DNA of 64,000 bases from Candidatus Bathyarchaeota archaeon (GCA_963768425.1 CAVYHV010000006.1:160001-224000), one strand, 5' to 3'. Positions 3,242-59,496 are shown, counted from the first letter of the stretch. The notes: generated from the letters alone by a model not told the origin. Translations and numbers: made by a program.

Positions 3242-4360
3242 ATGGTTTGGCGGCGAACAAAAATGAAATTTAACGTGGGCATCGAATCAATCGAAGCAGA
3301 AGTAAAAGGCAACATTCTCGTGGTTTGCTCCAGAGAACCTTTAAGAGTACTTAGCTCCGCCGTTTTAAACGGAGGGCTCATGGAAGCAGATGCGATAATT
3401 AATGTTCAAGTCCCTGAAGGTAGCGGCGAAAACAAAAATGACGCACACTGGAACGCCGAAGAATTCTTGAAAACGCAAGTTCAAGTTCTCGGGCTTCCGG
3501 AGGGCAAAGTGGTTGGGCTAATGACTGCCGCCAAAATGAAGAATGTAGTAACAGCGACCAGAAAATACGGCAAAACAACTGTGGCTCTTTTCGTGACTGG
3601 CGGAAAAACCGTTGCTGTTACAGCCGGTGAACCGGCAGCCTCAAAAAACCCGCCGAAACCTGGAACAATAAACATTATTCTGCTGGTAGATGGAAACATG
3701 ACAGACGGCGCTATAGTTGAGGCACACAAAACCATTACAGAAGCCAAAACAGTTGCGCTAAGGGAACTAGATCTTAGAAGCCAGTTTTCAGGTGACCTTG
3801 CTACTGGAACATTAACCGACACCATTGCAGTGGCTTGCACCAAAAAAGGGGAGCCCATACGTTTTACAGGAACTTTCACTTTAATCGGAGAACTCATCGG
3901 GCAAGGCGTTAGAGAATGCGTAAAGAAGGCTATTTACTTACAAGAAGGACTTGTGCCTGGTAGGCCTTTGATGGAAAGATTGACTGAGAGAGGAATAGAA
4001 ATCGAGAAGTTGATGTCTCTTTTCACTCGAATTGTCCTCGTTGAAGACGCTAAAATTCAGCAATTCAGGAAGGAAGTGGAGCAAACTTTAGCTGATAAGA
4101 AAATCGCGGGGTTGATTTTGGCAAGCCTCAGGTTTGACGATGATTTAAGAAAAGGCTTAATCCCCGAGCAAGCTCAAAATTCCGTTGACCAAGATGTGTT
4201 TGAAGAAATTGTGTCTGCAGCAGTTAGGATTTACTTGTCGGACACTTGCATCTCAGATGTTGAATGCCTCAGGTTGATGACGAAAGAAGAGAGTTTGGGT
4301 CCTCTGACAACTTGCGTTCTAAACGCAATCATGAAAAACGTCTACTCCAAAATTGGCTAA
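3242..4360 (+). CDS. cbiZ: Adenosylcobinamide amidohydrolase CbiZ with C-terminal extension
   Basis: LSSAVLNGG, GLMTAA, GTINIILL, TITEAKT, ATGTLTD motifs typical of CbiZ; start may be 3263. Confidence 0.85.
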   Translation: MVWRRTKMKFNVGIESIEAEVKGNILVVCSREPLRVLSSAVLNGGLMEADAIINVQVPEGSGENKNDAHWNAEEFLKTQVQVLGLPEGKVVGLMTAAKMKNVVTATRKYGKTTVALFVTGGKTVAVTAGEPAASKNPPKPGTINIILLVDGNMTDGAIVEAHKTITEAKTVALRELDLRSQFSGDLATGTLTDTIAVACTKKGEPIRFTGTFTLIGELIGQGVRECVKKAIYLQEGLVPGRPLMERLTERGIEIEKLMSLFTRIVLVEDAKIQQFRKEVEQTLADKKIAGLILASLRFDDDLRKGLIPEQAQNSVDQDVFEEIVSAAVRIYLSDTCISDVECLRLMTKEESLGPLTTCVLNAIMKNVYSKIG

Positions 4361-4479
4361 CCCAATTTACAACCGTAAAGATGTTCTTGTGACAGTGCCT
4401 CTAGTACTTGCTCGCAATTTCCCATACATCGGTCAAGTACAGTTAACTTTAATAATGCTGTAACTCGCTTTTTAGCAAG

Positions 4480-5754
4480 GTGCAAATTTACGTGGTTCAA
4501 ATAAATCCCAATGAGCTGCCCTATGACACGCTCAAACATTGGCCTCCGATGACATACAGAAACAACCAAGCACCAACCAAAGAGGCAAGCAGGGATTTTG
4601 AAAGCTTTCTTAACGGCGAAAACACCTCAAAAGGACCAAAAGAGCTGCAGCCGTGGATTCCATTCTGCGACGGAAGATGTTCCTTTTGCTATTTCCCAGT
4701 TAACTGCGAAAAACACGACATCTCCGCCTACATCGAAGCTTTGAAGACTGCGTTGCATCGCTACTCACAAACCAGATATATCCAGTCAACAGTTTTCGAT
4801 GAAATCTACGTGGGCGGCGGCAGCCCCTCTGTTCTTTCTGAAATGCAGATCGCAGATGTTATGAATTTTTGTCGAGGCAATTTCAAATTTGCCGGTGGCT
4901 GCACGACAAAGTTTACCGCGTGCACTTTCGGGTTGACAGACAAGAAAATTCGTCTCTTAGCTTCCCAAGAAATTGACCAATTAGACATCGGGGTTCAAAC
5001 CTTTGAAGACGCCTTCCGAAAAAATCTCACGCTCCGAGACGGAAGCAAAGACGCCAAGGAAAAGCTGAAGGCCGTTAAGGAAAATGGTTTGCACCTCAGC
5101 ATCGACCTACTTTATAACCTCCCTGGACAGACAATGGAGCAGTGGAGAGGGGACTTAAAACAGGCTTTGGAGCTTGAAGTTGAAAGCGTAGACTGCTACC
5201 CTCTGGATCTGTACGCGGATACACCGCTTGCCAGAAGAATCGCCCTTGGTGAGCTGCCTTCACCAGGTGACTATAAAAAAGAACTCGAGATGTACTTGGA
5301 AGCCTATGACATTTTCAAACAGAACGGATACTTCCCAACCTGCCACAACAGGTTCTCAAAACTTAAAGAAGACCGCGGGAAAGTGTCTTCAGAAGTCGTG
5401 GGAACAGGAGCAGGCTTCTTCATGGGGCACCTTGGCAACTTCCAATACTCAGACATCGACAACGTCAAAGACTACATAGCCCAAGTTAAGAAGGGATCTT
5501 TCCCATTGGCTTCTCTTGCGACCCTCTCCAAGGAAGATAAAATGCGCAAAGCAATGATGCTCATATACGTCCGCATTCGGTTGGACCGCAAAGACTTCCG
5601 AGACGAATTCGGAAAGTTTCCCGAAGAAGCATTTCCAGACGCAATAGAAAGACTCAAGCGAAAAGGCCTGATTGTGGTCACTGACGAAGAAATACGATTG
5701 TCAGAGAAGGGCGACCCGTGGCGGTTCAACATTGCTTGGGAGTTCTTCAAGTAA
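4480..5754 (+). CDS. HemN/coproporphyrinogen III oxidase-like radical SAM protein
   Basis: IPFCDGRCSFC (CxxxCxxC), YVGGGSPS, IGVQTF, SIDLLYNLPGQT, HemN-type C-terminus; start probably GTG 4492. Confidence 0.85.
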   Translation: MQIYVVQINPNELPYDTLKHWPPMTYRNNQAPTKEASRDFESFLNGENTSKGPKELQPWIPFCDGRCSFCYFPVNCEKHDISAYIEALKTALHRYSQTRYIQSTVFDEIYVGGGSPSVLSEMQIADVMNFCRGNFKFAGGCTTKFTACTFGLTDKKIRLLASQEIDQLDIGVQTFEDAFRKNLTLRDGSKDAKEKLKAVKENGLHLSIDLLYNLPGQTMEQWRGDLKQALELEVESVDCYPLDLYADTPLARRIALGELPSPGDYKKELEMYLEAYDIFKQNGYFPTCHNRFSKLKEDRGKVSSEVVGTGAGFFMGHLGNFQYSDIDNVKDYIAQVKKGSFPLASLATLSKEDKMRKAMMLIYVRIRLDRKDFRDEFGKFPEEAFPDAIERLKRKGLIVVTDEEIRLSEKGDPWRFNIAWEFFK

Positions 5755-12063: not shown

Positions 12064-12351
12064 TTACACTACGCATTCAGAAATCTGTGGGTGCCTGCTT
12101 AATTCATCCAGAGACTTGTTTAGCAATATGTTGTCTCCAACGCTAGCGACTAAAGCGATGGGCAAGCATACAGTTGAGCTTCTGAATCTTTTTTTGAATC
12201 CAAGGTCCTCGGACGCTGGTTTGGACAACTTTACATGCAAATGGGTTACTTGCCAATTGTTAGTGTCTATGTCTGCCCCTCTAATCTCGCCAAGATCAAA
12301 TCCACCCGCACAGATAACAAACATTCCATCAAGTTTATCAGTACTAACCAA
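12064..12351 (-). CDS. PRC-barrel domain protein
   Basis: LDGMFVI...G..LGEI....ID...W.V...V and VASVGDNILL pattern. Confidence 0.75.
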   Translation of the reverse strand: MVSTDKLDGMFVICAGGFDLGEIRGADIDTNNWQVTHLHVKLSKPASEDLGFKKRFRSSTVCLPIALVASVGDNILLNKSLDELSRHPQISECVV

Positions 12352-12742
12352 AACAAATCACCATAATATCGTACCAAAATCAAAGATATAATTCTTCCTT
12401 AACTATACGCTGAGTTCCAAAATATTGAAGGTTCTACACTTTGCAGATTTAAGAATTATTCTTTGTATGTTTGTTTGTCGGTGTATTGTGTTGTGTCGTG
12501 TCGTTGTAGTTGTTGTTGTAGGTGTTTTGGGAGGGTGTATGAGTAGAAGAGAGGTGGTTAGTTGTGAGTTTTAGGATGGGAAAAAGATTAAAATTTAATC
12601 TTTCTCTCTCTCTGCCAAACTAAAACGGTACATTCAAGGGTTAGGAACTTCGTCGCTATTTAGAGTAGATAAGTCTTAAATATGAGCGAGAGAGAGAAAG
12701 CGCGCGGGAAGCCTTTTATCGAAAACCAGTTCTAGAGTAATT

Positions 12743-13306
12743 ATGAATTGCTGCGGTAAGTTTTTTGCTTTTTTGTTTGCGTTTGTCTTTCTTGCTTCTT
12801 TAGTTATGTTGCCGGCTGGGAGCGTTAACGCGGATCCAAGTGAACTCCTTGCTTTCTCTTCTGGACTTACTCTTTATTCACCGGTCAACACGACTTATAG
12901 TTCTAATGTAGTGGAATGTAACGGCACGTTTGTTGGCCCGATCGATTACGAACTTACCTTGAATTATAGTGTTGACGGAAACTATCAAGGCAACTTACCT
13001 TGGGTACTTAATCAGAATTCCACGAACTCTGCGACTTATATGGTGGATTGGTCCTTTCAGTTGCCTAAACTATCGAAAGGGGCACATCAGTTAAGCGTTG
13101 GAATCGAGCAACAACTCTTTAGCAATGGCTATACAGTGGTCAAGCAAGACACATATGTGGATACGGTTTATTTCACGGTAAATCCAAGTCAACCGACCCT
13201 GAGTGCTTTGGAGGTTTCTTTGTTGGCTATTTCGGTTTTGATAGTTGCCCTGCTTGCTGTTGCCGTGTATTTGAGGCATCGAAAAACCGCTAACTTGAAA
13301 CAATGA
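12743..13306 (+). CDS. Secreted Ig-like domain protein with C-terminal TM anchor
   Basis: Signal peptide, SPVNTTY...YSVDG...L.KG.H.L.V motif, TM helix and basic tail. Confidence 0.7.
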   Translation: MNCCGKFFAFLFAFVFLASLVMLPAGSVNADPSELLAFSSGLTLYSPVNTTYSSNVVECNGTFVGPIDYELTLNYSVDGNYQGNLPWVLNQNSTNSATYMVDWSFQLPKLSKGAHQLSVGIEQQLFSNGYTVVKQDTYVDTVYFTVNPSQPTLSALEVSLLAISVLIVALLAVAVYLRHRKTANLKQ

Positions 13307-13446
13307 CCTTTTCCCACGGCTGGCTGGGTGTAACCACCCTCTGTCTGTTAGTCCAGAAAGTTTGACTAAAGTCAGTCAAGACGGGATGTAAAGGCTTTTT
13401 CTGATTAGACCTCCGATAAGCCGTGTGATATCGGAGGCGTTGGAGA

Positions 13447-13840
13447 ATGGGTGAGGTAGTGGTTGGGTTGGACGTTCACTTGAAGAATACTCAAGTGACC
13501 GTCATGAAGTTAAGTGGAGAGGTTGTTAAGAAAGAGAGGATTAGGACTTGTAAGACTGAGCTTCGCAGGTCCTTGGAGGATGTTCCGCATGGTAGCAGAG
13601 TTGCGTTGGAGTCTGTTGGTTTCTGTTGGCCTTGGATCGATTTTCTTGATGAATTGAAGTTTACGCCGTTGCTTGCAAACCCGTTGAGAGTGAAGCTTAG
13701 GGCAGAAGATGTTAAGAATGATAAGGTAGATAGCAAAACGTTGGCTGATTTGACGAGGATGAATTAGTTGCCGACTTGTTATGTTCCCAGCAGTGAGATG
13801 CGTTGGCTTCGTAGCTTGCTTAGGCATCGAGCTTTCACCC
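13447..13840 (+). pseudogene. IS110-family transposase remnant (N-terminal DEDD domain only)
   Basis: VVGLDVH, VALES, KNDKVDSKTLA; in-frame TAG at 13765-13767 followed by LPTCYVPSSEMRWLRSLLRHR, then similarity ends. Confidence 0.85.
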
Positions 13841-43866: not shown

Positions 43867-46663
43867 ATGGGAACATTAAATCTTGATAGTATTTTCAACC
43901 CTAAAAGTGTAGCTATTGTCGGAGCCAGTGACGCTGAAGGCTCAGTAGGCTACGCGATTGTAAAAAATTTTACTAAAATGGGGTTCGCAGGCAAAGTTTA
44001 CTTTGTCAACATTCGAAAGCCAGAGATTTTAGGTGTTAAAACTTTCAAGTCAGTCGATCAGATTCCGGAACCTGTCGACCTAGTTATGATTGCCACACCT
44101 GCCAAAACCGTTCCTGACGTCATGGAGGAATGTGGACGGGCAAATGTGAAAGGCGTAATCATAGTGTCTGCGGGCTTTAAGGAAACAGGTGCTGATGGGA
44201 AAGCTTTAGAAGATAGGATTCGTCAAATCGCCAAAAAATATGGAATCCGAGTTGTAGGACCAAACTGCATCGGCGTGCTTCGTCCCAAAAATAATCTTAA
44301 CGCCACTTTTTTGGATAAAATGCCTAAAGCAGGCAATGTTGCTTTTCTTTCTCAAAGCGGAGCTTTAGGCTCAGCAGTTCTTGACTGGGCAATCCATGAA
44401 AACATCGGTTTTAGCAACTTCGTTTCCGTCGGCTCCATGGTAGACGTGGACTTCGGTGACCTGATAGATTATTTCGGTTCCGACCCAAAAACCAAAAGCA
44501 TATTGATGTACGTAGAAGGCATAACGGATGCACGCAAATTCATGAGTGCAGCAAGACACTTTGCAAGAGCCAAACCAATAATTGTAGTCAAATCTGGCAA
44601 ATTCGCTGAAAGCGCAATGGCCGCAGCTTCTCATACGGGTTCGCTCTCAGGAGAAGATGGCATTTACGATGCTGCTTTCAAACGTGCAGGCATTGTAAGA
44701 GTCAGTGAAATCGCAGATTTATTTAACTCCGCGGAAGTCTTAGGATCGCAACCCCTACCCAAAGGTCCGAAATTAGCAATAATCACTAACGCAGGTGGAC
44801 CAGGCGTAATGGCGACGGACGCTTTAATTGCTTATAGCGGCAAGTTAGCGAGTCTAAGCCAGAAATCGCTGGATGCTCTCAACGGCGTGCTGCCTCCTTT
44901 CTGGAGCAAAGGCAACCCAATCGACGTTTTGGGTGACGCGAAAGCTGACCGTTACAAAGCTGCTCTTCAAGCTTGCCTCAACGATGAAAACATCGATGGA
45001 ATCTTGATTATTTTCACTCAGCAAGCAGTGTCAGAAGCAATAGAAATTTCCAAAAACATAGTTGATCTTGTACGCAACAAAACTAACCAAGACAAAACAA
45101 TCTTAACCTCGTTTATGGGTTTTGGCCCAGTTCAAGAAGCCAACAACATCCTAAACGCAAACAACATCCCAACATACTCAACTCCTGAACAAGCAATCAA
45201 AACATACATGTACATGTACGAGTACCAACGCAACAAAGAACTCCTATACGAAACCCCTGAAGAGTTACCCTACGACGATTCACCCCCAAAACGCCCCATA
45301 ATGGTCATACTACGGAATGCTGCATTTGAAGGCCGAGACGTCTTAACTGAAGACGAAGCAAAAAAAATACTCAAATACTATGATTTCCCCATCGTAACAA
45401 CAGAAGCCGCAAACAATGTAGAAGAAGCAGTGCAACTTGCCCAAAACATGGGTTTCCCAGTTGTACTAAAAATTCTCTCCCCCCAAATCCTCCACAAAAC
45501 AGACGCCGGCGGAGTAATTCTAAACATCAACACTCCAAACAAAGTTCGAGAAGCTTTCGAAACTCTAATCCAAAGAGCAACAGCCTACAACCCAAACGCG
45601 CAGATAATCGGTGTTACCGTTCAACCCATGGTTGAGAAAAAAGGCCAGGAAATCATAATCGGCGGAAAAACCGATCCAGTCTTCGGCCCAGTAATACTAT
45701 TCGGTATGGGCGGTGTCGGTGTAGAGCTTTTCAAAGATTACTCAATTGGGATTCCACCATTAAATACAACTCTGATTCACCGCATGATGGAAGACACAAA
45801 CATTTACCAACTGCTCAAAGGATACCGAGGTTCAGCTCCCGTTGATCTTAAAAAACTCGATGAAACCATGCTGCAATTCTCGCAGTTGCTTGTTGATTTC
45901 CCACAAATAAAAGAAATTGACATCAACCCACTCTTAATCAACGAGAAAGAAGCATGCATTCTTGACGCCCGCATCGTAATTGACAAAGATGCAGTTTGCC
46001 GCAAATTTGAGTTACACGAACACATGATTATTAGCCCTTACCCAAAAAAATACGAAACAATTTGGCGCCTAAAAAGCACACAAGAAGTACTGCTGCGCCC
46101 CATAAAGCCAGAAGACGAACCCATGTGGCTTGAAATGTTCCAAAGCTTCTCAGAAGAATCCATACGATACAGATTCTTCCAAATGCTAAAAGACACTCCA
46201 CGTGAAGTTCGAGTCCGCTACTGCAACATCGATTATGACAGAGAAATCGCAATTGTCGCTGAAATGGTTGAAGAACGGAAAAAGAAAAATCCTCGGTGTA
46301 AGCCGCGTCATCATTGAGACTGATGGAAAAAGCAGTGAAATGGCCTTCATCGTAAGCGACTACTGGCAGGGACTAGGTTTAGGAACTAAAATGGTTGACT
46401 ACGCGCTTGACATCGCAAAAGAAAAAGGCGTCGAAAGCGTCTACGCAATAATGCTGCAAGACAACTACAGAGCTTTGAGCTTGACAAAGAAAATGGGCTT
46501 TAACCTTGAATACTTAAGCGACGGAACAGTCAAAGCATCACTTAACTTAAAAAACGAAGACATAGATTCACGATGCCTAATAACAAATGTACCTGAACCA
46601 CTTCAAGAACAAACAAAGCAACCAAAAACCGCGAAAACAGAAGAAAAGACCGCTCCGGCGTAA
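43867..46663 (+). CDS. Acetate-CoA ligase (ADP-forming) family / GNAT fusion (Pat-type acetyltransferase architecture), frameshift ~46285
   Basis: FNPKSVAIVGAS, GPNCIG, SQSGALG, ASHTGSL, TNAGGPG, ATP-grasp HKTDAGGV, then GNAT WQGLGLGT. Confidence 0.9.
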
Positions 46664-46675
46664 TCGATAAGGTAC
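46417..46675 (+). repeat. Direct repeat copy 1 (3' end of acyl-CoA synthetase/GNAT gene)
   Basis: Nearly identical to 52751-53010. Confidence 0.95.
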
Positions 46676-46828
46676 ATCCTTCTTTCTTCGAATAATTATT
46701 CAATTTTGAGTAATAATTGGGGTCACCTTTTTCACATTGGTGTCTGTGTGCTTAACTTATTTTTGAATATGGAGTGTCTGAAGAATACTTTTATCTGTGA
46801 GTATGAAAATTATACTTTTGGTAATAAA

Positions 46829-47119
46829 ATGGGGCAAGAAGAACCTGAGATTGCAATCGTTGGAACAAAAGGTCAAATAGTTATCCCACAACGACTCCGA
46901 AAAGAACTAAACATAATTTCAAAAACAAAACTCATAGTATACCGATCAGGGGATAAAATTGTGGTAACCAAGCTGGAGCTTCCACCTTTGAAGGAAGAAT
47001 TAAAAGATCTTTTCAGCGAAATTGATAAACAAAACAAGGGCAAAAAGATTTCTGACAAGGAAATTTTGACGGAGATTCAAACTTACAGACTTGAGAAGCG
47101 GGCCAAAAAAGGCGCATAA
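46829..47119 (+). CDS. AbrB/MazE/SpoVT antitoxin
   Basis: VGTKGQIVIPQRLRKELNI; start at MGQEEPE. Confidence 0.9.
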   Translation: MGQEEPEIAIVGTKGQIVIPQRLRKELNIISKTKLIVYRSGDKIVVTKLELPPLKEELKDLFSEIDKQNKGKKISDKEILTEIQTYRLEKRAKKGA

Positions 47120-47120
47120 A

Positions 47121-47696
47121 ATGGCTCGAGTGGTAGTTGACACGAATGTTTTGATATCAGCGTTGATTAATAACGGAAAGTCAAGAAAACTTGTCCTTAA
47201 ATTGTTAGAGGAACATACAGTAATATTATCTAGTCAGATATTAGCTGAATTGGCTGATGTTATCTCAAGAGATAAATTTTCTGTTACAAGCTCTCAGGTT
47301 GACAGGTTCATTTCGATTCTGGTTAAAAAGGCAACTATCGTTTCAGTGCGTTCCATTCCAAAGGTCATATTGGAAGATCCTGACGACGATGTAGTCCTCG
47401 CCACTGCTCTCAGTGGAAAAGCCGATTACATAGTTAGCGGCGACAAGCACCTCCTCAAAATAGCTTGTTATGATGAAGACGCAGATAGTTTCCGTGAATC
47501 AATTTATTCAAATTATAGCCAAGCGTTAAGGAACATCTTGAAAGCAAGTGTGGATCGGCAGTTCCAAGTTTTTAGATTTTCACTTTGCAAATTTCGTATA
47601 CAATCAAATGCGGATACTTCAAGTAAAACCTATACAAATGAGGATTTTCTTTTTCAAACTCAACACTTGGATCAGGCTCATAAATCCTACAAATAG
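47121..47696 (+). CDS. PIN-domain (VapC-like) toxin with replaced C-terminus
   Basis: VVVDTNVLISAL, DPDDDVVLATA, ADYIVSGDKHLL; similarity ends ~47462 and the frame runs on into the convergent gene. Confidence 0.8.
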   Translation: MARVVVDTNVLISALINNGKSRKLVLKLLEEHTVILSSQILAELADVISRDKFSVTSSQVDRFISILVKKATIVSVRSIPKVILEDPDDDVVLATALSGKADYIVSGDKHLLKIACYDEDADSFRESIYSNYSQALRNILKASVDRQFQVFRFSLCKFRIQSNADTSSKTYTNEDFLFQTQHLDQAHKSYK

Positions 47697-48681
47697 CCAA
47701 ACCATTCTCACTAAGAGCGCTCGTCATTTCATCAAGGGTAAACCAATGATGCGGATTGTCTTTAACCTTGAACTCTATTTTGTAGTTAGGTAAACGTCCA
47801 TGAAAGCGTCCGTTGCTCGAGGAAGTTATGCCTTTTGCAAGTTGACCAAAAAACGGATGCGCCTCAATAATAAAAAATCTACCCTGATCAGCCAGAATTC
47901 TACTGATTTGGCTTAAAGCTTCGGAGAATTCCTTGTGGTTATGTGTTTTTCTGCAATAGTCAAAACTCACAATTGTATCTATAGCCACAATATAGTCAAA
48001 GTATTTGGAATGCACGTTTTTTGCAAAATCAAGAAAATCCCACTGAAAAAACTCTTCGTTATCAAGGTCTAGTCTTTTTTTGAGTTCGTTTGCTTTTTCA
48101 ATTAGAAATGCGCTTCGGTCAATACCGGTCACGTGTGCTCCAAGTTTAGCCAGAATCGTGGAATAATATCCTGGTCCGCATCCAAAGTCAAAGATCTTTT
48201 TTCCTGCAATTTTCTCTTTCGTAAAGAATTGTGCAACAAAATTTTCTACGCAATATTTGTAGTAGGTTCGGCTTTCAGGTCTTATGTCTGAAACGTCATC
48301 GTAAAATTTCTTTTTAAACCATTTTTCCATAATTCCCTGCTGATCATCATGTTCCTTCAAAGCTTGAGGAATTGCTGTTTTCATTGCTTTGTTGACAGCT
48401 GAAACCAACATCTCTTCGACGTTTTGCATGGACCCGTTTGAACAATCATTGCCTATGATTTTTTCGCCAAATGCAGAGTTTAACCATTCTTTGTATTCAG
48501 GCAACGTTTTTTCTAAGACTTCATGGATTGTTGACTGCAGTTTTGCATAAATTTCTGGATCCAATTGTTCAAAAAGCTGAACTTTTTCCGAAGGCGCATT
48601 CAGGTGTTGATTTTGCTTTTTGGCTATTGCAGGCTTTTTAGAGAGGGTTTTAGTTGTTGGTTTATTTTTTGGCAAAAACAA
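47572..48681 (-). CDS. Class I SAM-dependent methyltransferase with N-terminal precursor-like domain
   Basis: IFDFGCGPG motif I, VTGIDRS, FDYIVA; residues ~1-112 paralogous to 50480-50938. Confidence 0.85.
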   Translation of the reverse strand: MFLPKNKPTTKTLSKKPAIAKKQNQHLNAPSEKVQLFEQLDPEIYAKLQSTIHEVLEKTLPEYKEWLNSAFGEKIIGNDCSNGSMQNVEEMLVSAVNKAMKTAIPQALKEHDDQQGIMEKWFKKKFYDDVSDIRPESRTYYKYCVENFVAQFFTKEKIAGKKIFDFGCGPGYYSTILAKLGAHVTGIDRSAFLIEKANELKKRLDLDNEEFFQWDFLDFAKNVHSKYFDYIVAIDTIVSFDYCRKTHNHKEFSEALSQISRILADQGRFFIIEAHPFFGQLAKGITSSSNGRFHGRLPNYKIEFKVKDNPHHWFTLDEMTSALSENGLAICRIYEPDPSVEFEKENPHLYRFYLKYPHLIVYEICKVKI

Positions 48682-48776: not shown

Positions 48777-50366
48777 TTAATAATATGGAACGATTATTTT
48801 TAAGGGATAATTTCTTTTTGAGCTTGACGTTTTTCCCATGCTTAAGCGGTTCCAAACCGAACGGAGATTTTCATATCGTTGGCTATCGGGCAAAGGCGAA
48901 TAAAAATAACTATAATTATTTCCTGTTTTTTCTTTGCTCAGCTCTATTCCATATTCTTGCGGGTTATGAGAAATTTCTGAATCAGGCAAAACCCCAAAAC
49001 GTGAAATGCTGACTTGATCAATAAATTCTTGGTTTTGCTCTAAGAAAGCAACGGATTGTTCAAAATCTCTCTGAGTTTCCCCTGGAAAATCTACTATCAT
49101 AAATGTCAAAACGCGAATGCCATTCTTTGCAGTATCGCGGATCACGTTTTTAGCAGTTTCTATGTCATACCCTTTTTTCATCTTACTCAGAATTCTCTGG
49201 GACCCAGATTCTATGCCAAACCACAACCCGATACAACCCGCCTGCCGAATTTTCCCAAGCAATTTGTCGTTCATTTCAGAACGAACTCTGGCCATACCCA
49301 TCCACTGCATTCCGATATTTTCTTCAATCAATAAATCGCAGAGTTTCTCCAAAGATTTGATGTTACAATTTATCAAGCTGTCATTGAAGCGAATGGTGGA
49401 AACTCCATATTTTTCTTTGATATGCTTGAATTCCGATACTATGTTTTCTGGTGACCGCATCCGATACGTGTTGCCCCATAGACGTTTTTCAACACAAAAA
49501 ACACAATCACCAACACAACCTCTAGAGCCCACAACCGGCATTATAGGCATCCCGAACTTGTTTTGAGGATATTCCTCCAAGGGCAAATTATCGTAGTCGG
49601 GAAAAGGCAAATCGTCAAGAGATTTAATTAATGGTCGATCGACGTTAGAGATAATTTTGCCCCTCTCATTTCTGAAGGAAACTCCATCGATTCCCTTTAT
49701 TGAATCTAAACTTCCGCCATAGAAATTAGCTATGTCAGCGATTGTGGACTCGCCCTCCCCTCGAACTGTTACGTCAATTTCTGGGTTGGCAGACAGAACT
49801 TCTTCCCATGAAGCGAATGCCGGACCCCCCAAAACTGTCAAAATTCTCGGTTGAATTTTCTTTAATTTACGTGCGAGAAGTATGCTCCACATCAATCCCG
49901 TATGAGTTATTACATGAAATCCCACAACACTTTGACCTTTGGGATCGTTGGCTATCTCCATAAACCATTCATTACAAATTTTCCAAACATCCGACAGTGT
50001 CGTCTGTTTTGATTCTTCGCTGATAATATCTTTGGACGTTGAATTTGAATATGTATAACCTAATTGATCAGAAGCCTCTTTCAGCATTATTTCTTCAAAA
50101 ATTTTTTGGGCATTTTGAATGGTTGAATAAATTTCTGTGTCAGGAACCTTTTTCCATTTCGCCCCTCTCTTGATGCCGCTTTTTCTTAAAATTTCTCCAG
50201 GTTTGATTTCGAGTCCTTGATGGAAAAGAGTTAAGTTAAAAGCTTTAATATTCAGATCAAACGTGCTTACCTTTTGATTATTTGCATTTAAGGTGCTTGT
50301 CAAGTATGGAATTGCGGGATAAGGAACTAAGGAAGAAACTGGAGGGATGCAAAGAAAAACAGGCAA
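48777..50366 (-). CDS. Cobalamin-dependent (class B) radical SAM enzyme
   Basis: B12-binding VVGF...VLGGP...VRGEGE, LDDLPFPDY, SRGCVGDCVFC, GIESGSQRIL, FPGET. Confidence 0.92.
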   Translation of the reverse strand: MPVFLCIPPVSSLVPYPAIPYLTSTLNANNQKVSTFDLNIKAFNLTLFHQGLEIKPGEILRKSGIKRGAKWKKVPDTEIYSTIQNAQKIFEEIMLKEASDQLGYTYSNSTSKDIISEESKQTTLSDVWKICNEWFMEIANDPKGQSVVGFHVITHTGLMWSILLARKLKKIQPRILTVLGGPAFASWEEVLSANPEIDVTVRGEGESTIADIANFYGGSLDSIKGIDGVSFRNERGKIISNVDRPLIKSLDDLPFPDYDNLPLEEYPQNKFGMPIMPVVGSRGCVGDCVFCVEKRLWGNTYRMRSPENIVSEFKHIKEKYGVSTIRFNDSLINCNIKSLEKLCDLLIEENIGMQWMGMARVRSEMNDKLLGKIRQAGCIGLWFGIESGSQRILSKMKKGYDIETAKNVIRDTAKNGIRVLTFMIVDFPGETQRDFEQSVAFLEQNQEFIDQVSISRFGVLPDSEISHNPQEYGIELSKEKTGNNYSYFYSPLPDSQRYENLRSVWNRLSMGKTSSSKRNYPLKIIVPYY

Positions 50367-50479: not shown

Positions 50480-50938
50480 TTATTTGAACTGATCTTTCAA
50501 AGCTTGACGAATTGCTCCCATCATAGCCTCATTGACAGCATTAACAACCATATCGTCCATTTTTCTATTTGGTGTAGGGCAGTCGTTACCACATGAGCTA
50601 CACAAAGGTGTTGGACAGTCGTTTCCACATGAACTACAAAGCGGCGTCGGGCAATCGTTACCACATGAACTACACAAAGGTGTAGGGCAATCATCAGCTG
50701 CTATCAAAGAAGCATCAACCCACTGCAGATATTCTGGCAAAGTTTTTGCAACGGTATCACGAATTGTTGACTGCAGTTTTGCATACATTTTAGGATCCAG
50801 TTTTTCCACAGGTGGCATTTTTGCCAAGAGTTTCGTTAAACGTTTCTTTTGTGCTGGAGTCAGTTTTTTTGCTGATGGAGCGGTAGTTGGTTTTTTTGAG
50901 GAAGCTTTAGGTGTAGATTTATTTTTTGACAAAAACAA
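50480..50938 (-). CDS. Putative multi-core RiPP precursor with Cys-rich repeats
   Basis: (N/D)DCPTPLCSSCG x3 plus NDCPTP, located between two radical SAM genes. Confidence 0.8.
   Translation of the reverse strand: MFLSKNKSTPKASSKKPTTAPSAKKLTPAQKKRLTKLLAKMPPVEKLDPKMYAKLQSTIRDTVAKTLPEYLQWVDASLIAADDCPTPLCSSCGNDCPTPLCSSCGNDCPTPLCSSCGNDCPTPNRKMDDMVVNAVNEAMMGAIRQALKDQFK
50570..50695 (-). repeat. 36-bp coding tandem repeat, 3.5 units
   Basis: Units differ almost only at synonymous positions. Confidence 0.95.
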
Positions 50939-51020: not shown

Positions 51021-52438
51021 TCAACTTTTGGTTTTTGCATTTTTGTTTTTTTGAGATTCCAACAGGAAATTGTACGAAATTAGGAGCTTTAGTATTTCAT
51101 TTTGAAAAGTGCAAAAGTAGTCTTCTTTTATGCCAAGTTGCCCCGTTTTAACATAGATATCGTAAGCGCATCCTCCGCCGCAAATTCCAATCGCAGCACA
51201 TCTCATACAGTCTTTATTCTTTAGTGTCCCCATTTCCAGCCATTTATAAAACACGGGTTCTTCTTGAACTTTCAAATCATCTTTAATTGGAATTTGATAT
51301 TTTCCCGACGGATAAAACGCGTGGCAAGGACCCACTGTTCCAGTTGGCGAAAAAAATAGTAGTTGACCAAAAGCTGGGCAATCGTAAAGGTGGAATATTT
51401 CTTTGAAAAAATAATTTGCACGCCGATTATCAATGCGATCTTCAAACATGTGCAATTCTTTTGCTTTTAAGTAGGCCCCAAAAAGATGATGAGCAAGCTC
51501 TTTGGGGTCTGGAACTTCAAATTCGCTTGGCTCTTTAAGTCTGGTCAACAAGTTGAAGCCTATGGTTCTGACGCCTAATTTCTGGATAAATTCTATTATT
51601 TCTTCTGTGTGCTCATAGTTCTGTTTCGTAATGGTGCATGATATTCCTGTGTTTACACCCGCCTCTTTTAGAAGCGCCAACGCTTTGAGTGCTGAGTAAA
51701 AGGTTTCTTTTCCATCGGTGAAAACACGGTTTTTGTCAATGTTAGCCCACCCGTCAAGCGACAACCCCACGGTAACGTTGTGTTGTTTAAGTTTCTTAGC
51801 TATGTTTTCGGTTATTAGGCTTCCATTTGTTACGCAGGAAAACAAGAATTTACCTTAGAAGCCGCCTCAAGCTTCTCCATGATATAGAATACAATTTCAC
51901 TATTGCTAAACGGCTCTCCCCCATAAAAAGTGACCCTGTATTCTGGAACCTGTTTTGCCTCGTTGACAAGAACATTTATGACTTTATCAGCCAAATCCTT
52001 AGACATCACTGCACTTGGGCCTTTTAGAGAGTTTTCTATAAAACAGTAACCGCACCTGAAATTGCAGAAGTCGGTAACCAAAATGTAGGCAAGATTGGTT
52101 TGTGGTTTTTTTCTAAGCAGACTGGTTGCAAGAGTTTCAAAAACTTTTTCCTCATTAAAGCCTTGAGGAACCAAAAATTTTAGTTCCATTAACTCTTTAA
52201 TGTCCTTGCCATGCTCGCCCTCACTTAGATCTGCCAAAACCTTTTCGTACTTTTTGTTGGTTAAGTACACTTTCTTTAGAGTTAAAGAATTGAAAAGACA
52301 CTTCGTTGATTCATCAATATCAAACAAGTGGACAAACGGCGAAAGAACCCCTTGAGCAAGCTCTTCACGGAGCACTCGCTCAGAAGACTGGTTTTTATTC
52401 ACAATCACATTAACCGCCTTAGATTGTTTCTTGCTCAT
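51021..52438 (-). CDS. Radical SAM/SPASM peptide maturase with N-terminal RRE-like domain (frameshift ~51840)
   Basis: TDFCNFRCGYC, FYGGEP, TNGSL, SLDG; SPASM CPAF...GPCH...CMRCAAIGICGGGC...FC; N-terminal beta3-alpha3-like segment ending LMELKFLV. Confidence 0.9.
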
Positions 52439-52750
52439 TTACCCACCCAAAAAGAAAACCATCTTAAATGTCCCTAAATTAACAAATTATTAAAATCTTT
52501 CCTAAATCCCATTGACGACCATTTTCGATGTACAGGATAAACCTTTTGTGTTTTTCCATTACTTAATTGTGAAAAATAATGGTGCACCCTTGGTTACCCT
52601 TCTTTCTATTTGGCTGTTTCGAATCTGGCTGCTTCAATTTGAACCGGTCCTCAAAAAGACAACGAAACTATACAGTTAAGTTATCGAGATTATCAAAAGT
52701 AGACTTGTTTGCTCTAAAACAGGGCACAATTTATATTGAGTTGAATAATA

Positions 52751-53010
52751 AAAAGAAAAGGCGTCGAAAGCGTCTACGCAATAATGCTGCAAGACAATTA
52801 CAGAGAGCTTTAAGCTTGACAAAGAAAATGGGCTTCAACCTTGAATACTTAAGCGACGGAACAGTCAAAGCATCACTTAACCTAAAAAACAAAGACATAG
52901 ATTCACGATACCTAATAACAAATGTACCTGAACCACTTCAAGAACAAACAAAGCAACCAAAAACCGCGAACACAGAAGAAAAGACCAGTCCGACCTAAAC
53001 AAAAAGGTAC
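52751..53010 (+). repeat. Direct repeat copy 2 (degenerate 3' fragment of the acyl-CoA synthetase/GNAT gene)
   Basis: Matches 46417-46675 with scattered substitutions, a 2-nt insertion and a 1-nt deletion. Confidence 0.95.
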
Positions 53011-53408: not shown

Positions 53409-53849
53409 TCAAATTTCGAACGAAAACGTTTGGTCATTAAAAAAATGGGCTCTAATTGAAAGCTCACTTAGGATTCGCTCTAAAACCGCCTCTCTATTCT
53501 CGAGCTCGTGTTCCCATATTCGCATAACAATCCACCCTTTATTTTCAAGGCGTAATGTTGTTTCTATATCTCTTAATTTGTTCTTATTCAATTTAGGAAT
53601 CCAATACTCTTTGTTACTTTTAGGTAAATGCCCGTGGATTGGACAGCGGTGCCAGAAGCAACCATCAACGAAAATTGCTATCTTTCTTTTAGGAAACGCA
53701 ATGTCTATTTTTTCTTTGCCATATTGGATACTGAACCTAAACCCCTTTGCCCACAATGCCCTTCTCAAAGCAACTTCAGGCGTTGTGTTTTTGGAACGTA
53801 TGGCAGACATTATTTTTGAACGCTTTTCTTTAGAAATTGTGTCTACCAT
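53409..53849 (-). CDS. vsr: Very short patch repair endonuclease
   Basis: DTISKEKRSKIMSAIRSKNTTPE, FVDGCFWH, RIWEHE. Confidence 0.93.
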   Translation of the reverse strand: MVDTISKEKRSKIMSAIRSKNTTPEVALRRALWAKGFRFSIQYGKEKIDIAFPKRKIAIFVDGCFWHRCPIHGHLPKSNKEYWIPKLNKNKLRDIETTLRLENKGWIVMRIWEHELENREAVLERILSELSIRAHFFNDQTFSFEI

Positions 53850-53891
53850 AATTCTCAAACGTTTTATATTACTTCCAAACAATATTAGCGT

Positions 53892-54749
53892 ATGTGCCCC
53901 AACATACTAACAACAATAAAAAGTATTTCAGAATTCAGAAATAACGATCTCAAAAATTACTTCGCAACTTACCCTATCCGCATAAATCAAGTTGGGCAAC
54001 AATTGGAGTTTTACGTCAAAGATGCTATATGTGGCTCTTTCAAGTCTAACAAGACCGAAGACCTAGCTCACACTAAAGGGGTCTTTTCCTACTTAGGTAA
54101 TCAAAACAACCCTCCTGACCTCATTATTGCCAATGGTGACGCCTACGAGATAAAGAAAATCGAGAACCTCAAGGCTTCTCTTGCACTTAATAATTCCCCA
54201 CCAAAAGACCAACTTCATAGAGATGACCCAAGGATTACTCAATATTGCCGAGATTGTGACGGAGGCAATTGGAAAAGCAAGGAAATTTTTTATACTGTGG
54301 GGTGTGCTGAAAAAACTAAACTAAAGCATCTGTTCTTCATACATGGTCGTTGCTACGCCGCAGACAAAGAAATTTATGAAAACAAAGCAACCCAATTGAA
54401 AGAAGGCATCGACATTTTTTTCAAGTCAAAGGGATGGGAGACCACCAAAACAAAGGAATTGGGTCGAATAAATAAAATGGACCCTCTTGGCATTACAAAT
54501 TTTAGGATTCGCGGTATGTGGGAGATAGAAAATCCACTTAAGGTTTTTTCGTACTTATACAAGTTCGATGAACGGAAGAGTTTTTCGTTAGCCGCTCTTA
54601 TGACGAAAGAGAAATACGGTTCTTTCCCAAAAGAAGATAAAATGGCATTGGAAAATGATGACAAAATTACCTCAAAGACAGTAATTGTCAGGAACCCCAA
54701 TAATCCTGCTCAAGACGTGGAAGCTCAGCTTATTACCTCATGGTGGTAA
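53892..54749 (+). CDS. Type II restriction endonuclease, NgoPII family (GGCC inferred)
   Basis: FSYLGNQNNPPDLII, EIKKIE, DPLGITNFRIRGMWEIENP; adjacent HaeIII-like methyltransferase. Confidence 0.8.
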   Translation: MCPNILTTIKSISEFRNNDLKNYFATYPIRINQVGQQLEFYVKDAICGSFKSNKTEDLAHTKGVFSYLGNQNNPPDLIIANGDAYEIKKIENLKASLALNNSPPKDQLHRDDPRITQYCRDCDGGNWKSKEIFYTVGCAEKTKLKHLFFIHGRCYAADKEIYENKATQLKEGIDIFFKSKGWETTKTKELGRINKMDPLGITNFRIRGMWEIENPLKVFSYLYKFDERKSFSLAALMTKEKYGSFPKEDKMALENDDKITSKTVIVRNPNNPAQDVEAQLITSWW

Positions 54750-54752
54750 ACG

Positions 54753-55766
54753 CTGGAAATAGTGTCTCTCTTTTCAGGTTGCGGTGGGTTAGACCTTGGA
54801 TTTACGAATACTGGTTTCGAGTTAGTCTATGCAAATGACAATGACCCAATAGTCTGGGAGACTTTTGAAAAGAACCACAAAATAGCTATTGACAAGCGTT
54901 CTTTGTTTGAGATTAAATCCTCTGAAATACCTGATGCAGATGGAATAATTGGTGGTCCTCCTTGCCAAAGTTGGAGCCTTGCAGGAAAGATGCGTGGCGC
55001 AAAGGATGAAAGAGGACAGCTATTTTATGAGTACGTTAGAGTGCTGAAGGATAAGCGACCCAAGTTTTTCCTTGCTGAGAATGTCCCAGGAATTGTTTCC
55101 AGGACACATCTTCCGGAGTTTAAGAATATCTTAAGGAGGTTTTCTTCGCTGGGTTATGAAGTCTCCTTTGGGCTAGTTGATGCCCGAAATTATGGTGTTC
55201 CCCAAGACCGTAAAAGAGTGTTCATGATCGGTTTTAAAAAAAGTCTCAAGTGCCGATTTAAATTTCCTGAGCAAACACATTCAGAACTTGGCGGAAAGAC
55301 CCTCGATGGCAAGAAAACTTTCAAATGGTTGACATTGAAAGATGCTATTGGAGACCTTCCTGAACCCATTCGGGCTCTTGATAAGAACAAGGCTAACGGC
55401 AATCTAGCTATCCCTAATCATGAGTATATGAACGGAAGCTTTTCATCCATGTATATGTCTAGAAATAGACGAAGAACTTGGGACGAGCCTTCCTTTACAA
55501 TCCAAGCTGGCGGAAGGCATGCACCTTTACATCCAGGTTCCGCTAAGATGACAAAAGTTGAGACTGATCTGTGGAAGTTTGAGGGAGATAGTCCTCAATT
55601 CAGGCGTTTGTCAGTAAGAGAAGTTGCGAGAATTCAGACATTCCCAGATGATTTCAGGTTTTATTACACGAATATTGCAGATGCCTACAAGATGATTGGG
55701 AATGCGGTTCCGGTTAAGTTGGCAGAAGTTCTAGCGAAAAAGATCTCTGAAGACCTTAGTGTCTAA
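54753..55766 (+). CDS. C5-cytosine DNA methyltransferase, M.HaeIII-like (GGCC inferred)
   Basis: SLFSGCGG, GGPPCQSWS, ENV, QDRKR, target-recognition region NHEY..GSFSSMYMSRNR closely resembling M.HaeIII, GNAVP; probable CTG start. Confidence 0.92.
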   Translation: MEIVSLFSGCGGLDLGFTNTGFELVYANDNDPIVWETFEKNHKIAIDKRSLFEIKSSEIPDADGIIGGPPCQSWSLAGKMRGAKDERGQLFYEYVRVLKDKRPKFFLAENVPGIVSRTHLPEFKNILRRFSSLGYEVSFGLVDARNYGVPQDRKRVFMIGFKKSLKCRFKFPEQTHSELGGKTLDGKKTFKWLTLKDAIGDLPEPIRALDKNKANGNLAIPNHEYMNGSFSSMYMSRNRRRTWDEPSFTIQAGGRHAPLHPGSAKMTKVETDLWKFEGDSPQFRRLSVREVARIQTFPDDFRFYYTNIADAYKMIGNAVPVKLAEVLAKKISEDLSV

Positions 55767-57867: not shown

Positions 57868-59496
57868 GAGAGTGTGTGAAAAGTCTCATTTTTTGCCAGC
57901 CACTTACCGTTAAGCTTAAAGCTAGCCTTAGAACAACTGAAAAGCCATGAGCGAACATGTAAATGGAACCCACAGAGACCAAACAGTGCTGTTCCCAGAT
58001 ACCATCAACAAGTACGTTGAAAAAGAAAACCCGGTTAGGTTCATCGACGCTTTCATAGATAGCCTTGACCTGGAAAAGCTTGGCTTCAAACACTCAATTC
58101 CGGCTGAAACTGGAAGACCCTCTTACAATCCTTCAGACTTGCTAAAACTCTACGTTTACGGCTACCTAAACCAGGTCAGGTCTAGCAGGAAATTGGAGAA
58201 AGAGTGCCACCGAAACGTTGAAGTTATGTGGCTTATGAAGAGGCTTGTTCCAGACTTCAAAACCATTGCTGATTTCAGGAAAGATAACGTCGACTGCATC
58301 AAAGGCGTATTCAAAGAGTTTGTTTACCTCTGCAGGAGCTTGGATCTTTATGGTGCTCAGCTGGTAGCCATCGATGGTACAAAATTCAGGGCTGTTAACT
58401 CACGGGGCAACAACCTCAACGAGAAAGCAGTCGCTCTAAGACTCAAGCAGACAGAGGAAAGGATAGCAAAATATCTCAACGAATTAGACCACAATGATGC
58501 GTCTGATTCAGACGGAGATGGAGCAGTCAAGACCGATGAGCTTAAAGAAAAAATAAGCCAGTTGGAAGAGAAGAAGAAGCAGTACGAGCATATTCAAGAG
58601 CAGATGAAGGCCACAGGCCAAAGGGAGATTTCTCTTGTGGATCCTGATAGCCGCTTGATGAGAGTGGATAGTCAACGGTTTGAAGTCGGCTATAACATTC
58701 AAACATCAGTCGATGCGAAACAGCATCTAATCGTTGATTATGATGTGATAAATAACTCAACTGACCATCATCAGCTAGCCAAGGACGCCTTTGCAGCAAA
58801 GGAGACCTTGGGTGTGGATGAGCTTGATGTTTTGAGTGACAAGGGATTCTATGTTGAAAAAGACGTCTCAGACTGCGAGAACAATGGTATTACTGTCTTC
58901 ATGCCTATACCCGCCGTTTTGAGCCCTTACAAGAGTATTGGTGTTCCAGCGCCTGAGTTCTACAGCGACAAATTTGTTTATGATGCTGCTAAGAACGTGT
59001 ATGTTTGTCCTGCAGGCGAAGAGTTGAAGTTTTGTAAGTGCGTCTACAGAGATGAACCTGAGAGAGGCAGGGTTTACAGGACTGCTAGTTGCGCTGTCTG
59101 TGTTTTTAGGGGCAAGTGTACGAGGAACAAACGTGGACGGACTATGGTTAGGTCTGAGTATGATGATGCAGTTGAGCGTCTAAGGGTTAGGTTGAAGGGT
59201 CTTGATGGACGAGAGAAGATTCGTTTGAGACGGATGCTAGTGGAGCATCCGTTTGGGACTATTAAGCGTGCTTTCAATCAGGGCTATGTGCTATTGAAAG
59301 GCTTGCGAAAGGTTAGAGGAGAGGTCGGATTTACGATGCTGGCTTACAACATGCGACGGGCTATCAATATTCTTGGAGTTGGTATGCTGATGGGCTTCAT
59401 TAAGGCGTAGAAAAGAGAAAACAAGTGAACAATAGTAGCTAACAGCTTGAGTGATAGATACTCTTAGGATTTAGCTCTGAGTTTTCACACGGTCTC
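57868..59496 (+). mobile_element. IS1182-family insertion sequence
   Basis: Imperfect terminal IRs GAGAGTGTGTGAAAAGTC / GAGACCGTGTGAAAACTC (rc), 4-bp TSD GAAT at 57864 and 59497. Confidence 0.92.
57947..59410 (+). CDS. IS1182-family DDE transposase
   Basis: GRPSYNP..LLKLY.YGY, SSRKLE, PDFKTIADFR, AIDGTK, DKGF, VEHPFGTIK. Confidence 0.95.
   Translation: MSEHVNGTHRDQTVLFPDTINKYVEKENPVRFIDAFIDSLDLEKLGFKHSIPAETGRPSYNPSDLLKLYVYGYLNQVRSSRKLEKECHRNVEVMWLMKRLVPDFKTIADFRKDNVDCIKGVFKEFVYLCRSLDLYGAQLVAIDGTKFRAVNSRGNNLNEKAVALRLKQTEERIAKYLNELDHNDASDSDGDGAVKTDELKEKISQLEEKKKQYEHIQEQMKATGQREISLVDPDSRLMRVDSQRFEVGYNIQTSVDAKQHLIVDYDVINNSTDHHQLAKDAFAAKETLGVDELDVLSDKGFYVEKDVSDCENNGITVFMPIPAVLSPYKSIGVPAPEFYSDKFVYDAAKNVYVCPAGEELKFCKCVYRDEPERGRVYRTASCAVCVFRGKCTRNKRGRTMVRSEYDDAVERLRVRLKGLDGREKIRLRRMLVEHPFGTIKRAFNQGYVLLKGLRKVRGEVGFTMLAYNMRRAINILGVGMLMGFIKA

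Follow-up and report, generated by a model that had tools for sequence, protein, structure and literature searches.

We have analysed a stretch of DNA of 64,000 nucleotides (nt) from Candidatus Bathyarchaeota archaeon (GCA_963768425.1, CAVYHV010000006.1:160001-224000), called here, at its full length, the window, which carries on its minus strand four adjoining genes for a SPASM radical S-adenosylmethionine (SAM) enzyme, a small cysteine-repeat precursor protein, a B12-binding radical SAM enzyme and a methyltransferase whose N-terminal domain (the N-domain) is homologous to the precursor. The radical SAM/SPASM maturase occupies 51021-52438 and is split by a frameshift into two overlapping open reading frames (ORFs), 51830-52438 and 51021-51845; the precursor of 152 amino acids (aa) lies at 50480-50938, the B12 enzyme of 529 aa at 48777-50366, and the methyltransferase is a single open frame of 369 aa at 47572-48681. 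The usual order in related loci is SPASM gene, precursor, B12 enzyme, sometimes a second precursor, and methyltransferase. An earlier reading of this DNA made from the sequence alone (the sequence-only reading) had quoted strings from two proteins, and all of them are present in the methyltransferase and precursor ORFs at the coordinates given above.

From about residue 118 onward the 369-aa protein is a class I (Rossmann-fold) SAM methyltransferase. All 12 Pfam families that it matches are class I methyltransferase families, among them Methyltransf_31 (69.8 bits, residues 160-275), Methyltransf_23 (52.0 bits) and Methyltransf_25 (47.2 bits), each against a cut-off of 27. The core, residues 116-369 with the stop codon (47572-48336), was assigned with Pfam, NCBIfam and Foldseek, and no named NCBIfam equivalog reached its cut-off for the protein. 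It carries the SAM-binding motif I, D-x-G-C-G-P-G, at residues 165-171, where G169 and G171 are invariant in 23 sequences and D165, G167, P170 and G171 are invariant in 52. Foldseek with the whole model gave a probability of 1.00 to solved class I methyltransferases with target-normalised template modelling (TM) scores of 0.66-0.70 for the top matches; only generic class I methyltransferases were returned from the PDB, and when the PDB was searched by sequence every best matched stretch of the protein fell within the catalytic domain and the matches were generic. A methionine at the start of the core, Met118 (48328-48330), is conserved in at least 90% of sequences and aligns with the region in which homologues without the N-domain begin. 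Translation may also start internally at this codon and yield a short isoform.

In a BLASTP comparison of the methyltransferase with the 152-aa precursor, 57 of 150 positions were identical (E 9e-22). Methyltransferase residues 1-111 span precursor residues 1-150, both helices align, and the gaps in the alignment are the three 12-residue cysteine repeats of the precursor. The proposal of the sequence-only reading that the methyltransferase N-terminus is a duplicated precursor scaffold, consisting of leader and follower helix around a collapsed core, is thus borne out, the domain (residues 1-115, 48337-48681) being slightly wider than was first described. It consists of a Lys-rich tail (residues 1-36, 48574-48681), helix A (residues 42-70, 48472-48558), a loop into which the precursor repeats align as gaps (residues 71-87, 48421-48471) and helix B (residues 88-115, 48337-48420), which aligns to precursor residues 127-150 and is the counterpart of the follower helix. 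The precursor itself has a Lys-rich tail, two leader helices, three 12-residue cysteine repeats with a part-repeat, and a follower helix; its repeat core, residues 80-125 (50564-50701), is encoded by three 36-nt tandem copies at 50571-50692, with three cysteines in each repeat. No Pfam or NCBIfam family matches it, and it has 158 database homologues, which share the Lys-rich tail, the conserved leader, two to five 12-residue repeats of three cysteines each and the conserved C-terminal helix. That both proteins start Lys-rich had also been noted and holds: a K-N-K motif near the N-terminus is conserved in both families, and its columns and those of helix A, the best-conserved block that the N-domain has in common with precursors, are at least 90% conserved in both 41 N-domains and 60 precursors.

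The remnant of the repeats in the loop of the N-domain is I-I-G-N-D-C-S-N-G-S (residues 76-85), and among 41 full-length homologues the loop has no cysteine in 22, one in 15 and two in 4, and no repeat; P0166 has no remnant of the repeats at all, while in one subclade a longer remnant resembles the first and last part-repeats joined together. The loop between helices A and B descends from the repeat core. A second loss is in the leader. Precursor residues 25-42 are conserved solely in precursors, with T27, Q30, R33, L34 and L38 nearly invariant in the 60 precursors, and in the N-domain the columns of this helix (precursor residues 28-39) are replaced by a different, disordered stretch. Because the loop has zero to two cysteines and no repeat, the N-domain is a derived paralogue of the precursor and not a precursor.

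In the subclade with the longer remnant some N-domains are split in the loop by a frameshift. This was seen in three loci (L006, L012 and L033) and in short database forms (P0167 and P0170), and the split forms consist of a leader-like ORF followed by a methyltransferase that starts before helix B. The split N-domain is either a recurrent assembly error or a real split form.

In the source genome (2.96 Mb, 33 contigs) there are just two copies of the domain, the N-domain and the precursor. A phmmer search with residues 1-115 on 1.84 billion representatives returned 16 proteins, one long and 15 short; the long one (P0137, 367 aa) is a methyltransferase fusion, the short ones (78-184 aa) are precursor-sized, judged by length, and no fusion of the domain to another kind of enzyme was found with this query. 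A search of the ESM Atlas with the same residues gave no usable match.

The fusion itself is conserved. One genome per species was scanned for related loci, on which the window proteins were mapped, and this gave 33 loci in 22 assemblies, 21 of them titled Candidatus Bathyarchaeota archaeon and one Candidatus Sulfotelmatobacter. The N-domain is directly upstream of the methyltransferase core in all 23 of the loci that hold the core; of the rest, five have the precursor alone and five only the SPASM gene and the precursor. When the whole protein was used as query, 93 protein clusters were obtained, of which 42 are full-length fusions (61-100% identity, coverage 98-100%) and another has a coverage of 89%; 13 are short forms of high identity, 36 belong to a distant clade (50-61% identity) matching in the catalytic part only, and one is a precursor. 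Short-read contigs from other public runs (X1 record 1 and X3 record 17) bridge the domain junction with no gaps; the contigs compared come from relatives and a near-identical strain, no run contained more than 0.24 of the sampled words, and none of RNA was listed. A fusion peculiar to this assembly and made by read-through, the outcome that had been named beforehand as fatal to the idea of a duplicated scaffold, is rejected by the 23 of 23 loci, the 42 of 93 clusters and the contigs across the junction. Frameshifts are common in the related assemblies, and no biological meaning was given to gene fragments there. When 401 sampled genomes of the class were searched, the methyltransferase family was found in four, namely, the source genome and 3 of 40 other genomes of its genus. 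Among the genomes searched, then, the cassette was found almost only in records titled Candidatus Bathyarchaeota, and in one genus of the class sample.

The N-domain is under purifying selection. Median pairwise ratios of nonsynonymous to synonymous substitution rates (dN/dS) were obtained from 17 intact genes (130-136 pairs), 7 of the 24 fused genes of the window and the 23 loci being left out as frameshifted or fragmented. The median was 0.36 for the whole N-domain and 0.13 for the catalytic core, and within the N-domain it was 0.46 for the Lys-rich tail, 0.20 for the block with helix A (residues 37-72), 0.25 for the loop block (residues 73-87) and 0.55 for the block with helix B (residues 88-112). 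The domain is also old. It matches precursors of a second type better than its own neighbour, with E values of 5e-36 to P0038 and 6e-28 to P0119 against 9e-22 to the neighbour. A quick tree was built from 60 columns of the two shared helices with 29 of the 41 N-domains and 57 of the 60 precursors, the remaining 12 and 3 rows having been dropped when the motif patterns failed to locate both helices in them. It placed 27 N-domains in one clade (Shimodaira-Hasegawa-like approximate likelihood ratio test, SH-aLRT, 96) and 52 precursors of the neighbour type in another (97), with the second precursor type and two divergent N-domains between them. The N-domains may have a single origin, and the sequences indicate that the N-domain is an old paralogue nearer to other precursor lineages than to its own neighbour.

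The sequence-only reading had pointed to 23 nt that are identical between the two genes (48527-48549 and 50763-50785). The identity is real, but it has no extra meaning. It lies within a 96-nt repeat of 76% identity (D3) and covers conserved residues in preferred codons; identical runs in the corresponding block of the other 25 pairs of N-domain and precursor are 5-20 nt long. Codon identity at identical residues is 0.50 within a locus (26 pairs) and 0.53 between loci (849 pairs), and gene conversion between the N-domain and its neighbouring precursor is rejected because codon identity is no higher within loci.

[quoted passage not shown] In the precursor model (60-row alignment) helices at 28-39, 49-78 and 125-150 have a pLDDT of 70-93 and the repeat core, residues 82-123, is below 50. 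The precursor looks, in the model, like a three-helix scaffold that displays a flexible cysteine-rich loop, and the enzyme appears to keep two of the three helices. It is likely, on the same models, that a two-helix hairpin needs a partner surface. When the N-domain (residues 1-115) was co-folded with the precursor, each with a custom alignment, the score was 0.44 (runs 0.49, 0.44 and 0.44) and that of the best of three controls was 0.00; the runs agreed in at least 81% of contacts and the partner pLDDT was at least 57. Of 157 solved complexes 116 pass the mark set for this tool, as do 2 of 215 mismatched pairs, and passes at or below 0.60 comprise only 18 of the 157 solved complexes plus both passing mismatches. 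The co-fold weakly supports a pairing of N-domain and precursor.

Relatives of the enzyme without the N-domain were found in ten metagenome loci (L041-L050), which hold methyltransferases of the distant clade; the precursor-like domain is absent from all 11 aligned rows of this sister clade. In 7 of the 10 loci the sister methyltransferase gene comes directly after one for a SPASM radical SAM enzyme; on the contigs of L043 and L047 a SPASM gene is represented, immediately upstream, by its 3' end only, and L048 has its SPASM gene on the other strand. Six of the loci (L041, L042, L045, L048, L049 and L050) have an unrelated cysteine-repeat ORF with its own leader and C-terminal helix. From the adjacency to SPASM genes and the cysteine-repeat ORFs it follows that the enzyme family is a regular partner of SPASM enzymes and cysteine-repeat proteins, and that the N-domain was added in the present lineage. 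The repeats in the sister loci include, for example, seven copies of an 8-residue C-A-P-P-V-D-C-A unit and four copies of a 9-residue cysteine-rich unit. A motif F-G-D-I..I-L is common to the C-terminal helices of four of the sister-locus precursors and may be a follower recognition element.

Based on these findings we tentatively favour the reading that the N-domain, an old paralogue of the precursor kept by selection, acts as a substrate-mimicking docking module. Having lost the cysteine repeats and the extra leader helix (precursor residues 28-39), the N-domain is left with a Lys-rich tail, the main one of the leader helices and a follower helix, and its two-helix hairpin would pair with the same two helices, leader and follower, in a precursor molecule. 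This pairing would tether the methyltransferase beside the cysteine-rich loop that the SPASM and B12 radical SAM enzymes are expected to modify, and methylation would take place in trans on the tethered precursor. The N-domain itself would be no substrate and would probably not be processed by the radical SAM enzymes. Docking or oligomerisation through this domain had been suggested by the sequence-only reading, and of its suggestions on function it is the one that we keep, by inference and with the support of the one weak co-fold (0.44, controls 0.00). Several observations weigh against it. Sister methyltransferases serve analogous clusters without such a domain, so docking is not intrinsic to the enzyme family. 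Helix B, one of the two helices that would pair, evolves fairly fast (dN/dS 0.55 over residues 88-112), and the N-domain is closer to precursor lineages that are not its neighbours (5e-36 and 6e-28) than to the precursor beside it (9e-22). According to the calibration of the tool, a co-fold pass at such a score is more often wrong than right unless the pairing is likely beforehand, and the chains that were co-folded are paralogous amphipathic helices that may pair in silico without meaning.

A bolder form of this proposal, which we regard as possible yet doubtful, is that the N-domain is a decoy-substrate tether, that is, a captured substrate scaffold from which the core and the handle for the maturases have been deleted and which co-assembles with the real substrate, methylation being done in trans within a mixed helical bundle. 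A corollary would be that the precursor is a small, uncleaved helical protein displaying a modified cysteine-rich loop. No peptidase and no transporter or exporter was found with Pfam in the conserved cassette or in the flanks of five related loci.

Among the explanations that differ from the docking of substrate mimic on substrate, the one that survives best, unlikely as we consider it, is that the N-domain docks on a maturase by taking the site of the precursor leader on the SPASM or the B12 enzyme, so as to form a multi-enzyme complex or to allow substrate hand-over. The conservation in both families of the K-N-K motif at the extreme N-terminus and of helix A would be expected from it, and in the Crp system the first residues are, according to the published account, the predicted recognition sequence for the maturase recognition domain (PMC13692751). 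The position of the sister methyltransferase gene directly after the SPASM gene in 7 of 10 loci suggests joint action as well. However, the precursor helix 28-39 is missing from the N-domain, and if that helix is the handle for the maturases then the handle is gone; moreover, an N-domain on the leader site would compete with the substrate.

Distinctly less probable is that the N-domain is a leader in cis which binds its own catalytic domain, as an active state or as a lid, and lets the enzyme act on cores whatever their leader, including those of orphan precursors. An engineered fusion of a leader to an enzyme for peptides that are made on ribosomes and then modified after translation (RiPPs) is reported to be constitutively active (PMC13003496), extra precursors do occur away from maturases (5 of the 33 loci have the precursor only), and the hairpin is moderately confident in the single-chain model (pLDDT 50-72). 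Against this, the enzymes of the sister clade do without the domain, and nothing indicates that the enzyme family depends on a leader.

It is very improbable that the N-domain has no present function and is a relic of an in-frame fusion to a precursor, or that the active enzyme is the one starting from Met118. The conservation of Met118 and its alignment with the start region of the homologues without the domain would fit such a start, but dN/dS stays well below 1 throughout the domain, all 17 intact genes have an open frame, and the N-domains form an old clade of their own with no decay. The least probable explanation, a borosin-like self-substrate whose loop is methylated or cross-linked, had been raised by the sequence-only reading as the methyltransferase being itself a substrate, and despite the descent of the loop from the core, the one or two cysteines kept by 19 of 41 homologues and the dN/dS of 0.25 in the loop block, it is not supported. 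The loop cysteine is missing in 22 of the 41 homologues, which makes cysteine chemistry on the enzyme itself unlikely; P0166 lacks any repeat remnant, the precursor-specific leader helix is missing and the methyltransferase is not of the borosin type.

Neither of the two radical SAM enzymes with which the methyltransferase would share its substrate reaches the cut-off of a named enzyme family. Pfam finds Radical_SAM in both halves of the SPASM maturase, and the SPASM family TIGR04085 scores 44.4 bits against a cut-off of 27. The maturase falls in no named equivalog (FibroRumin, PapB, CefB and others), the best scores being 120.9 against 400, 86 against 340 and 61.3 against 600; its nearest NCBIfam families are the FibroRumin and PapB thioether maturase families, far below their cut-offs. 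The gene is intact (484 aa) in locus L004. By alignment the indel (51830-51853) gives the window gene two bases more than L007 and L009 have and one less than L004. A near-identical contig (X4 record 31), which differs at two other places in 219 nt, carries an additional base at 51853, and because of this base the frameshift in the window is possibly an assembly error. The B12 enzyme matches the Pfam B12-binding family at 34.5 bits against 32.1 and Radical_SAM at 68.6 against 29.5; its nearest NCBIfam families, TIGR03975 and ApyD, are below their cut-offs (144.2 against 281.85 and 160.6 against 750). Of the 23 related loci with the methyltransferase, 21 have the gene of the B12 enzyme too.

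The number of precursor genes varies. A second precursor gene lies between the B12 and methyltransferase genes in eight loci (L008, L013, L019, L020, L021, L022, L015 and L032, the last two frameshifted), orphan precursors without a maturase within 7 kb occur in five (L010, L023, L027, L028 and L031), and some genomes have up to three complete clusters.

The four genes lie in a segment bounded by a direct repeat of about 260 nt, whose left copy (46417-46675, plus strand) and right copy (52750-53010, plus strand) are 94-95% identical at a spacing of about 6335 nt. The repeat duplicates the 3' end of an ORF with a GNAT domain and encloses, besides the four-gene cluster, an ORF for a MazE-like antitoxin and one for a PIN-domain protein (PIN_3, E 1.6e-19) at 46706-47696, both convergent with the methyltransferase gene, whose 3' end is overlapped on the opposite strand by the PIN ORF tail. 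The cluster and the MazE/PIN pair look like a cassette that was inserted into or beside the GNAT-domain gene. To the left, at 43867-46663, an ORF for a coenzyme A (CoA) ligase/ATP-grasp protein (816 aa) overlaps at 46202-46317 with the GNAT ORF (153 aa), which is in another frame, and the two look like a single acyl-CoA synthetase/acetyltransferase gene that a second frameshift has broken. Genes for a Vsr mismatch endonuclease, an NgoPII-type restriction endonuclease and a C-5 cytosine DNA methylase are found just past the right copy (53409-55766). About 5 kb from the cluster there is a DUF772/DDE transposase (57947-59410), which shares 77% identity with a transposase that adjoins the L015 cluster (12123-13580), and the cluster in L009 is also adjoined by a transposase of the DUF772/DDE Pfam family (3489-4760). 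The flanks vary in content between related loci. They are not conserved because tblastn searches of the related loci for the CoA-ligase/GNAT gene, MazE and PIN gave only spurious antisense matches, in which the PIN ORF tail lay over the 3' end of the methyltransferase gene.

How tailoring enzymes find their substrates is a central question in the maturation of ribosomal peptides and proteins, and the present fusion has to be compared with the answers that are known, namely, linear leaders bound by recognition domains, leaders that are folded, and enzymes fused covalently to the core. A search of the literature in full text, with subscription journals and supplements outside it, gave no account of this family of precursors, nor of a tailoring enzyme that naturally carries a precursor domain lacking the core. 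The cassette, which has not been described and whose product is predicted from sequence to be a multiply modified cysteine-repeat protein, consists of four small genes, and these make the system directly testable.

The Crp system of Methanococcus voltae (CrpA, CrpB and the SPASM enzyme CrpC) resembles it in being archaeal, in the action of a SPASM enzyme on a protein-sized cysteine-repeat substrate, in having a leader-like N-terminal region in two proteins of the cluster, and in that the substrate is thought to be engaged by domain-domain contacts (PMC13692751). There, however, the second bearer of the region is a putative substrate and not an enzyme, and that cluster has no methyltransferase and no B12 enzyme (PMC13692751). 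The sequences, moreover, are unrelated: the CrpC family, TIGR04463, scores only 52.7 bits here against a cut-off of 525. Nif11-like leaders share with the N-domain that a helical, folded leader and not a short linear peptide makes the protein-protein contacts, but they are described as part of substrates only (bioRxiv 10.64898/2026.10.04.756588), and by Pfam and NCBIfam they have no sequence relation to the precursor.

Ranthipeptides (PapB) and FibroRumin systems provide the best NCBIfam matches for the maturase and likewise have a cysteine-rich repeated core beside the maturase, and the precursor may carry thioether or other cross-links. They differ in that the scores are far from the cut-offs (120.9 against 400 and 86 against 340) and in that here there are a follower helix, a B12 enzyme and a fused methyltransferase. 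In engineered leader-in-cis RiPP enzymes a leader is joined covalently to a tailoring enzyme, as it is here, but those described are laboratory constructs (PMC13003496), whereas the present fusion is natural and conserved and keeps the follower helix; it would be a natural precedent for such constructs.

Borosins are autocatalytic alpha-N-methyltransferase/precursor fusions of the OphMA type in which the C-terminal core is the substrate. The sequence-only reading had drawn on them, and the analogy holds only loosely. The two have in common that a methyltransferase and precursor-derived sequence are in one polypeptide, and action in trans within an oligomer is what we propose here. The differences are that borosins have a methyltransferase of another family and a C-terminal core as substrate, while here a class I enzyme carries a core-less precursor part at its N-terminus and a full precursor is encoded by a separate gene. 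Membership in the borosins is rejected on these grounds, since 12 of 12 Pfam matches are class I and the C-terminal end of the protein is the catalytic domain, with the precursor-like part at the opposite terminus. If the N-domain is a decoy tether, the borosin principle would be reversed in it and would operate without autocatalysis, and recognition would depend on neither a recognition domain nor a linear leader. A conserved natural enzyme bearing a core-less substrate scaffold would add a fourth solution to the three that are known from linear leaders, folded leaders and the enzyme-core fusions of the borosins.

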